From NCBI RefSeq assembly GCF_003334315.1, contig NZ_QOWR01000015.1: DNA of 64,000 nucleotides; one strand, given 5' to 3'. Positions within the stretch are counted from its first letter, which is position 1, and the number at the start of each line of letters is the position of its first letter. A model generated the notes under the pieces. The model did no database searches, was not told the origin of the DNA, and worked only from the letters and a program-made list of their open reading frames with translations. This DNA comes from Escherichia coli. Its GTDB lineage: Bacteria; Pseudomonadota; Gammaproteobacteria; Enterobacterales; Enterobacteriaceae. Of the stretch, positions 1,775-1,941 are shown piece after piece. Both the position numbers and the translations under genes were made by a program.

Positions 1775-1790
1775 TGTGAGTTCATTCACA
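1775..1790. promoter_or_regulatory. Candidate CRP binding site (TGTGA-N6-TCACA)
   Basis: Sequence TGTGAgttcatTCACA matches both consensus CRP half-sites with correct spacing, about 150 bp upstream of the ygfK start. Confidence 0.4.
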
Positions 1791-1844
1791 AAAAGCCCTT
1801 AAGTTTCGAGCCGCCTCACATTTTTTTATATTTCCCGCCAAACC

Positions 1845-1859
1845 TGGCAAGAGTGGTGC
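1845..1859 (+). promoter_or_regulatory. Candidate sigma54 (-24/-12) promoter upstream of ygfK
   Basis: TGGCAAgagtggTGC: GG and GC dinucleotides at the canonical 12-nt register; about 80 bp upstream of the ygfK ATG. Confidence 0.3.
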
Positions 1860-1941
1860 GATTGTTGCTCTATCCCCCTAAACCACCGGATTTCTCAACA
1901 CCGGTCACTCAATGATATCTGTATAAGCTAAGGAGAGGGTT

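Follow-up and report, generated by a model that had tools for sequence, protein, structure and literature searches.

In E. coli and Salmonella, the prpBCDE operon reportedly combines sigma-54, PrpR and IHF with a positive effect of CRP. The CRP effects which have been characterised at other sigma-54 promoters, namely dctA, glnAp2, glnHp2, Pu and nif, are all inhibitory (Mao 2007, PMC1865078; Zhang 2014, PMC3900584). At glnAp2, CRP located at about -50.5/-51.5, on the face of the polymerase, represses transcription (PMC1865078; PMC3900584).

For the region upstream of ygfK, data on both sigma-54 and CRP have been published. The sigma-54 ChIP-seq study of Bonocora et al. 2015 (PMC4591121) assigned the intergenic peak OS31, with a fold above threshold of 26, to ygfK. 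Its motif is exactly GTGGTGCGATTGTTGCT, and the peak is centred 18 bp further downstream than this motif. The promoter, whose predicted start precedes ygfK by 62 nt, is flagged as predicted in EcoCyc (PMC4591121). Further sigma-54 sites of the same gene cluster were found for xdhA, ygeW and ygfT, and according to the same authors ygfK was also called in an earlier microarray study with sigma-54 over-expression (PMC4591121). In vitro SELEX with the sigma-54 holoenzyme recovered ygeV/ygeW and did not recover ygfK (PMC8743547). In the Genomic SELEX for CRP, the spacer between ygfJ and ygfK was the third most frequent clone, with 9 clones (Shimada et al. 2011, PMC3105977). Table S4 of that study lists TGTGAGTTCATTCACA and TGTGAGGCGGCTCGAA as CRP boxes, the latter being the reverse complement of the sequence which we call box 2 below, and the ygeV-ygeW and ygfT-ygfU spacers are CRP targets with listed boxes as well (PMC3105977). 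Thus, both halves of the regulatory region are already known: Genomic SELEX gave the CRP boxes, and the sigma-54 site comes from prediction, a microarray study and ChIP-seq. A sequence-only reading of this DNA had concluded that the cluster is under sigma-54 control and catabolite sensing. Since both halves are in the literature, this conclusion is correct but already known; the published ChIP-seq and CRP SELEX data support it, while the direction in which CRP acts has to be inferred.

The window, by which we mean the whole analysed stretch of 64 kb, comes from the Escherichia coli chromosome. The site under study is located in the 321-bp spacer between two genes which are annotated as mocA and ygfK in RefSeq genomes with identical DNA:

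1042-1620: mocA (ygfJ), the gene 5' of the spacer
1942-5040, plus strand: ygfK, ORF of 1032 aa, according to the RefSeq annotation on identical DNA

The gene ygfK has a role in uric acid degradation (bioRxiv 10.1101/2025.05.19.654654) and heads the ygfK-ssnA-ygfM-xdhD unit. This operon serves the anaerobic, reductive breakdown of uric acid and is known to be regulated from the mocA-ygfK spacer. The gene order in the cluster is xdhABC, ygeV, ygeW-dpaL-ygeY-hyuA-arcC, yqeBC, mocA, ygfK-ssnA-ygfM-xdhD, xanQ-guaD-ghxQ, ygfST and uacT. Out of 5426 complete E. coli genomes, 5169 contain the promoter-proximal 226 bp of this spacer (1665-1890) with at least 95% identity. Variation within the species was checked in five genomes, four of which were comparable base by base. 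None of the substitutions among these four variants falls in the CRP boxes or in either of the sigma-54 registers described below, and one of them is the first base of a conserved block at 1748-1768. A terminator scan revealed no terminator after mocA, and an Rfam search of positions 1600-2100 returned no RNA family.

In the promoter-proximal part of the spacer, two overlapping sigma-54-like registers are present:

1853-1869, plus strand: published sigma-54 promoter GTGGTGCGATTGTTGCT, with the -24 GG at 1855-56 and the -12 GC at 1867-68
1845-1859, plus strand: TGGCAA-N6-TGC (TGGCAAGAGTGGTGC), the element chosen in the sequence-only reading, with GG at 1846-47 and GC at 1858-59, 12 nt apart
1880, plus strand: predicted transcription start, 12 nt past the C of the -12 GC and 62 nt 5' of the ygfK ATG

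The start was predicted by the convention of Bonocora 2015, which places it 19 bp downstream of the motif centre and at a distance of 62 to ygfK. In the literature searched, no mapped transcription start was found for ygfK. In both registers the G of GC follows the first G of GG at the required distance of 12 positions. For a quantitative comparison we used a weight matrix of the 17-nt motif, which was derived from 38 ChIP-validated intergenic sigma-54 sites outside of this cluster, whose own four sites were left out. The register at 1853-1869 scored 12.2 bits and that at 1845-1859 scored 11.0 bits, while most validated sites have 13.5-21 bits. The 12.2 bits are a weak match to the matrix and count against the regulatory scheme proposed below. 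Moreover, eight sites in the 64-kb window reach at least 11.0 bits, and with seven matches versus 4.1 expected, TGGCA-N7-TGC as a loose pattern shows no enrichment there. The matrix alone could not separate the two registers, which were told apart by means of their conservation and the published motif from ChIP-seq.

As a side result, three motifs in the window score 12.6-13.1 bits and thus at least as high as the ygfK promoter. They are located at 41119-41135 (minus strand), 58859-58875 (plus strand) and 62802-62818 (minus strand) and may be intragenic sigma-54 sites like the widespread ones of Bonocora 2015.

Conservation was analysed with 80 loci encoding YgfK orthologues, one genome per species, in which 450 bp upstream of the gene were scanned. 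In nearly all of the 80 loci the top-scoring site corresponds to the 1853-1869 register. This holds for Escherichia, Citrobacter, Klebsiella, Kluyvera, Serratia, Edwardsiella and Buttiauxella and likewise for Morganella, Aeromonas, Vibrio, Photobacterium and Shewanella. The orthologous promoters are 47-144 nt away from the ATG and often have a -24 box, TGGCG or TGGCC, which is better than that of E. coli. The 1845-1859 register, by comparison, is among the top two sites only in an Escherichia sp., in E. whittamii, where its equivalent is weakened to TGGTA and scores 7.0 bits, and in one Citrobacter. At the level of single bases we relied on a MAFFT alignment of 24 genera, which replaced an ungapped alignment anchored on the promoter because in the latter the upstream blocks were blurred by shifts of 1 bp. 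Invariant across the 24 genera are TGG at 1854-56, A1861 and TTGC at 1865-68, whereas the columns beneath the TGGCA of 1845-1859 are unconserved.

This bears on the question whether 1845-1859 could nevertheless be the functional promoter, with a start near 1870-1871, or a second, overlapping site in E. coli. It has a perfect TGGCA as -24 box, a correct GG-N10-GC spacing and a score just 1.2 bits below that of its neighbour, and a base-by-base comparison of four E. coli variants showed no change in it. However, this register is missing outside of Escherichia and one Citrobacter, the motif called by ChIP-seq is the downstream one with a peak centre even 18 bp further downstream, and the -12 region of 1845-1859 reads GTGCG and lacks the TTGCW context which is invariant at 1853-1869. 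We consider it very improbable that 1845-1859 is the functional or a second promoter, although E. coli sigma-54 might use it as well, given the almost equal scores. The TGC of the upstream register is a part of the TGGTGC which forms the -24 box of the 1853-1869 promoter, and the TGGCA in front of it is best seen as a lineage-specific coincidence. TGGCAA-N6-TGC is probably a look-alike which overlaps the real -24 box and not a functional promoter. Thus, of the sigma-54-like element proposed earlier, the string and its GG/GC register do exist, but they do not exceed chance expectation and are not the conserved promoter. The assignment of -24 and -12 was 9 bp too far upstream with respect to the published, conserved promoter at 1853-1869, and the predicted start moves from near 1870 to near 1880. 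The scoring with a sigma-54 matrix which had been suggested gave 12.2 bits for the overlapping 1853-1869 site, while the 11.0 bits of 1845-1859 are equalled or surpassed at eight sites of the window.

Downstream of the predicted start (window positions 1885-1893; columns about 260-270 of the MAFFT alignment), a block CCGNCGG(A) is kept in the leaders of most Enterobacterales. It has no Rfam match, and its E. coli version contains CCGG twice (caCCGGatttctcaacaCCGGt).

Upstream of the promoter, two CRP boxes are found:

1775-1790: CRP box 1, TGTGAGTTCATTCACA (core TGTGAgttcatTCACA), perfect core (10/10), centre at -97.5 relative to the predicted start
1805-1820: CRP box 2, TTCGAGCCGCCTCACA, 8 of 10 core bases, both mismatches being in the left half-site, centre at -67.5

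The perfect pair of CRP half-sites noted earlier at 1775-1790 was confirmed. Box 1 is the sole exact TGTGA-N6-TCACA in the 64-kb window on both strands, where 0.05 were expected from shuffled sequences. Among 31 non-redundant Enterobacterales, 25 have this box with no or one mismatch at -97.5/-98.5. In these 25 box 1 stays within 1 bp of -97.5, although the distance between the start and the ATG varies from 51 to 119 nt. Box 2 is conserved even more widely: its T1805, GA at 1808-09 and TC.C at 1816-19 are invariant in all 24 genera of the MAFFT alignment, including Aeromonas and Morganella, which are without a perfect box 1. With respect to CRP binding in vivo, the literature yielded no ChIP support for the ygfJ-ygfK spacer. 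We regard it as highly probable that the sigma-54 promoter at 1853-1869 and the two CRP boxes are correctly identified.

The two boxes seem to differ in age. Six loci, from Enterobacter, Klebsiella oxytoca, Cedecea, Kluyvera georgiana and Raoultella, have no perfect box at -97.5 and retain the -67.5 box together with the sigma-54 promoter. Because the -97.5 box was lost and the -67.5 box was kept in these loci, the latter looks ancestral and the former like a later addition which can be lost.

Perfect CRP sites usually serve sigma-70 promoters, and a TATATT hexamer is located at 1827-1832. It could be argued that CRP activates a conventional sigma-70 promoter of ygfK in the spacer, the sigma-54 site being poised or secondary. 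However, a consensus scan detected no sigma-70 promoter 3' of the CRP boxes, and its two matches elsewhere correspond to the expectation from shuffles. If TATATT were used as a -10 element, CRP would be positioned near -57 and -27, which fits neither class I nor class II, and the hexamer is unconserved in other genera while the spacing between the CRP boxes and the sigma-54 site is kept. Since the scan thus offered no sigma-70 promoter compatible with CRP, the locus does not belong to the class I or class II type of CRP-activated promoters, and activation of this kind appears very unlikely.

A sigma-54 promoter has to be opened by an activator driven by ATP, and candidate sites for such a protein are present further upstream:

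1672-1684: palindrome TATCATAATGATA, 13 bp, centred at about -202 from the predicted start, candidate YgeV site
1697-1706: TTTTGAGAAA, conserved TGA[G/T]A half-site at about -183 to -174, which may be another half-site for an activator
1748-1768: conserved block GAGTGATTTTAATTCTCATTT at -132 to -112, with TGAT…TCTCA half-sites

The pattern TMTCANNNTGAKA, that is T[A/C]TCA-N3-TGA[T/G]A, has three matches in the window versus 0.13 expected. In the alignment of 24 genera, the TGATA at 1680-84 is invariant and the T.TCA nearly so. Equally invariant in these genera are T1700, G1701, A1702 and A1704 in the second element as well as TGA at 1751-53 and TC.CA at 1761-65 in the third one, again with Aeromonas and Morganella included. 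The block at 1748-1768 could be a second activator site. Exact copies of the palindrome are found upstream of ygeW (at -240) and in the ygfT-uacT spacer, and two near-copies upstream of xdhA.

The gene ygeV belongs to the same cluster and is annotated with a sigma-54 interaction domain. In addition, ygfK, ssnA, ygfM and xdhD are members of the YgeV iModulon. The class of the promoter, the annotation of ygeV and the presence of ygfK in the YgeV iModulon all point to YgeV as the probable activator. The palindromes at variable, enhancer-like distances suit YgeV, as the cluster's own sigma-54 activator, and T[A/C]TCA-N3-TGA[T/G]A is put forward as its candidate enhancer. In the literature searched we found no published binding motif of YgeV, and the paper on IsrR (YgeV) contains no DNA-binding data.

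Three further observations concern the palindrome and the spacer. The third exact match in the window, TCTCACATTGAGA at 282-294, lies inside the coding region of yqeC on the opposite strand. Foreign DNA occurs in this spacer in some strains of E. coli: the match between GN05505 and the window ends at ~1681, inside the TATCATAATGATA palindrome, with no mocA annotated upstream, and in KTa005 a transposase of the ISVsa5 family is annotated between mocA and ygfK. The spacers of these two strains could be natural enhancer knock-outs.

We then compared five promoters of the cluster, which were anchored on their -12 elements: those of xdhA, ygeW, ygfK and ygfT (from Bonocora) and a weaker site upstream of uacT. 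A CRP-like box with at most two mismatches is centred at -67.5 for xdhA and ygfK, at -68.5 for ygfT and uacT, and at -77.5 for ygeW. In 5000 shuffles, not even three promoters shared a common box position (0/5000). At ygfK itself the layout of the boxes is kept from Escherichia to Aeromonas, the latter being without a perfect box 1. The features of the ygfT-uacT spacer are as follows:

16860-16876, minus strand: sigma-54 site of ygfT, published, weak
16910-16925 and 17115-17130: CRP-like boxes, each 68.5 nt from its own promoter
17042-17054: palindrome TATCAATATGAGA, common to ygfT and uacT
17164-17180: uacT site TGGCAC…GC, 6.5 bits, without a call in the ChIP-seq table

This spacer (16860-17180) shows the layout of the ygfK type in both directions. 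The uacT site is also the element to which the sequence-only reading had referred as a similar one before uacT.

A TGTGA-type box at a fixed position at all five promoters of the cluster is what would be expected of a regulon-specific factor, and a motif of YgeV has not been published. One may ask whether the TGTGA-N6-TCACA palindromes are YgeV sites, or sites shared by YgeV and CRP, instead of dedicated CRP sites. Against this possibility stand the strong binding of CRP to the spacer in vitro and the listing of the boxes as CRP sites (PMC3105977), as well as the match of 10 of 10 bases in the core of box 1. Besides, a centre at -67.5 would be unusually near for the site of a sigma-54 activator, and a better activator candidate exists in the separate family of palindromes, which occurs at variable, enhancer-like distances at all five promoters. 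Such a role of the TGTGA boxes is improbable in our opinion. As a main reading, the TGTGA palindrome as YgeV enhancer was rejected because of the CRP SELEX binding and the better fit of the other palindrome family; we treat the boxes as CRP sites.

Based on these features, we propose the following scheme for ygfK. The sigma-54 RNA polymerase would form a closed complex on GTGGTGCGATTGTTGCT (1853-1869), with a predicted start near 1880. For the opening of the promoter it would depend on an ATP-driven activator, for which YgeV is the best candidate. YgeV presumably binds to the palindrome and the related half-sites, at about -210 to -112. Between this putative enhancer and the promoter lie the two CRP boxes, the perfect one at -97.5 and the weaker, more widely conserved one at -67.5. 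By bending the DNA at these fixed positions, cAMP-CRP may allow the upstream activator to reach the polymerase. It would thereby make the operon sensitive to glucose and play a role like that of IHF at many sigma-54 promoters. As a whole, that is with the promoter at 1853-1869, YgeV as the activator and CRP as a positive bender, we find this scheme reasonably likely.

Its most debatable part is the direction of the CRP effect. In wild-type E. coli, uric acid degradation is repressed by glucose (bioRxiv 10.1101/2025.05.19.654654). The glucose effect on uricolysis could be exerted elsewhere, for example on the expression of ygeW or ygeV or on transport. A second point is the helical phase. Measured from -50.5, the centres at -67.5, -77.5 and -97.5 are displaced by about 1.6, 2.6 and 4.5 helical turns and thus lie roughly on the opposite face of the DNA. 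This phasing argument uses the predicted start and the glnAp2 data of Huo 2006 in the form in which they are summarised in Mao 2007 (PMC1865078). A bend on the opposite face should bring the activator to the accessible side of the closed complex. A positive role of CRP is favoured by the glucose repression, by the consensus-grade boxes at fixed positions and by their location on the opposite helical face.

The main rival to co-activation is repression. CRP bound at 1775-1790 and 1805-1820 may repress ygfK, either by a contact with the alpha subunit of the polymerase or by a bend which excludes the activator, and indeed all cases of CRP at sigma-54 promoters which were studied experimentally (glnAp2, dctA, Pu) are inhibitory. 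However, glucose, which lowers cAMP, represses the degradation of uric acid and does not stimulate it, and for a catabolic operon activation by CRP is expected. With respect to the repressing position of -50.5, the boxes also appear to be shifted in phase by about half a helical turn. They are centred at -97.5 and -67.5 and not at about -50.5/-51.5, the position which characterises the CRP-inhibited class of sigma-54 promoters of the glnAp2, dctA and Pu type. Furthermore, the sigma-54 promoters which CRP inhibits have a weak CRP site or none, while here a conserved consensus site is kept at a fixed position. Repression by CRP is therefore unlikely, and for the positive bending at the ygfK promoter itself we see the balance as roughly even.

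It is tempting to extend the scheme to the cluster. The promoters of xdhA, ygeW, ygfK, ygfT and uacT, each with a CRP box at one helical phase, might all use cAMP-CRP as a positive architectural co-activator which replaces IHF, and T[A/C]TCA-N3-TGA[T/G]A might be their common YgeV enhancer. This generalisation is offered tentatively, as somewhat less likely to hold than to fail. If true, the cluster would be a natural sigma-54 regulon in need of cAMP-CRP, contrary to every characterised effect of CRP on sigma-54 promoters, and positive bending of this kind would moderately interest those who study the mechanism of transcription. From the applied point of view, the anaerobic uric acid degradation of gut bacteria is under engineering to lower urate in gout models. 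For such work, the bases to mutate or replace are those of the -24/-12 elements in their correct register, of both CRP boxes and of the probable YgeV enhancer.

Compared with the systems described so far, the closest one is the same locus. OS31 of Bonocora 2015 has the same motif GTGGTGCGATTGTTGCT and falls within the interval which was pointed out from the sequence alone; the published GG/GC register lies 9 bp downstream of the one proposed there and belongs likewise to a predicted promoter (PMC4591121). The CRP SELEX target ygfJ>ygfK-ssnA (Tables S2 and S4 in PMC3105977) contains the same two boxes, TGTGAGTTCATTCACA and the one at 1805-1820. In the work of Shimada 2011 the evidence consists of binding in vitro and box prediction alone, and the boxes are not related to a sigma-54 promoter or to a spacing (PMC3105977). 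We did not find descriptions of the strict spacing of the CRP boxes across genera, of the helical phase common to the five promoters or of the palindrome as YgeV enhancer.

The IHF-assisted promoters Pu and nifH (PMC2709558) are alike in that a sequence-specific bending protein, placed in fixed phase between the enhancer and the -24/-12 elements, favours looping. At ygfK the bending protein would be CRP, and looping would thus be cAMP-dependent; an IHF consensus in the mocA-ygfK spacer was not seen by eye. The operon prpBCDE would resemble ygfK as a catabolic sigma-54 operon with catabolite repression via a CRP site in the regulatory spacer, although CRP is not known to have the same position and mechanism there. 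With glnAp2, dctA and Pu (PMC1865078; PMC3900584), ygfK has in common that CRP is located upstream of a sigma-54 closed complex and that bending and the helical face would matter. The difference is that in those cases the effect is inhibitory and the CRP site is weak, recruited (-51.5 at glnAp2) or absent. At ygfK, in contrast, conserved boxes of consensus grade are present at -97.5 and -67.5, and the repression by glucose points to activation.
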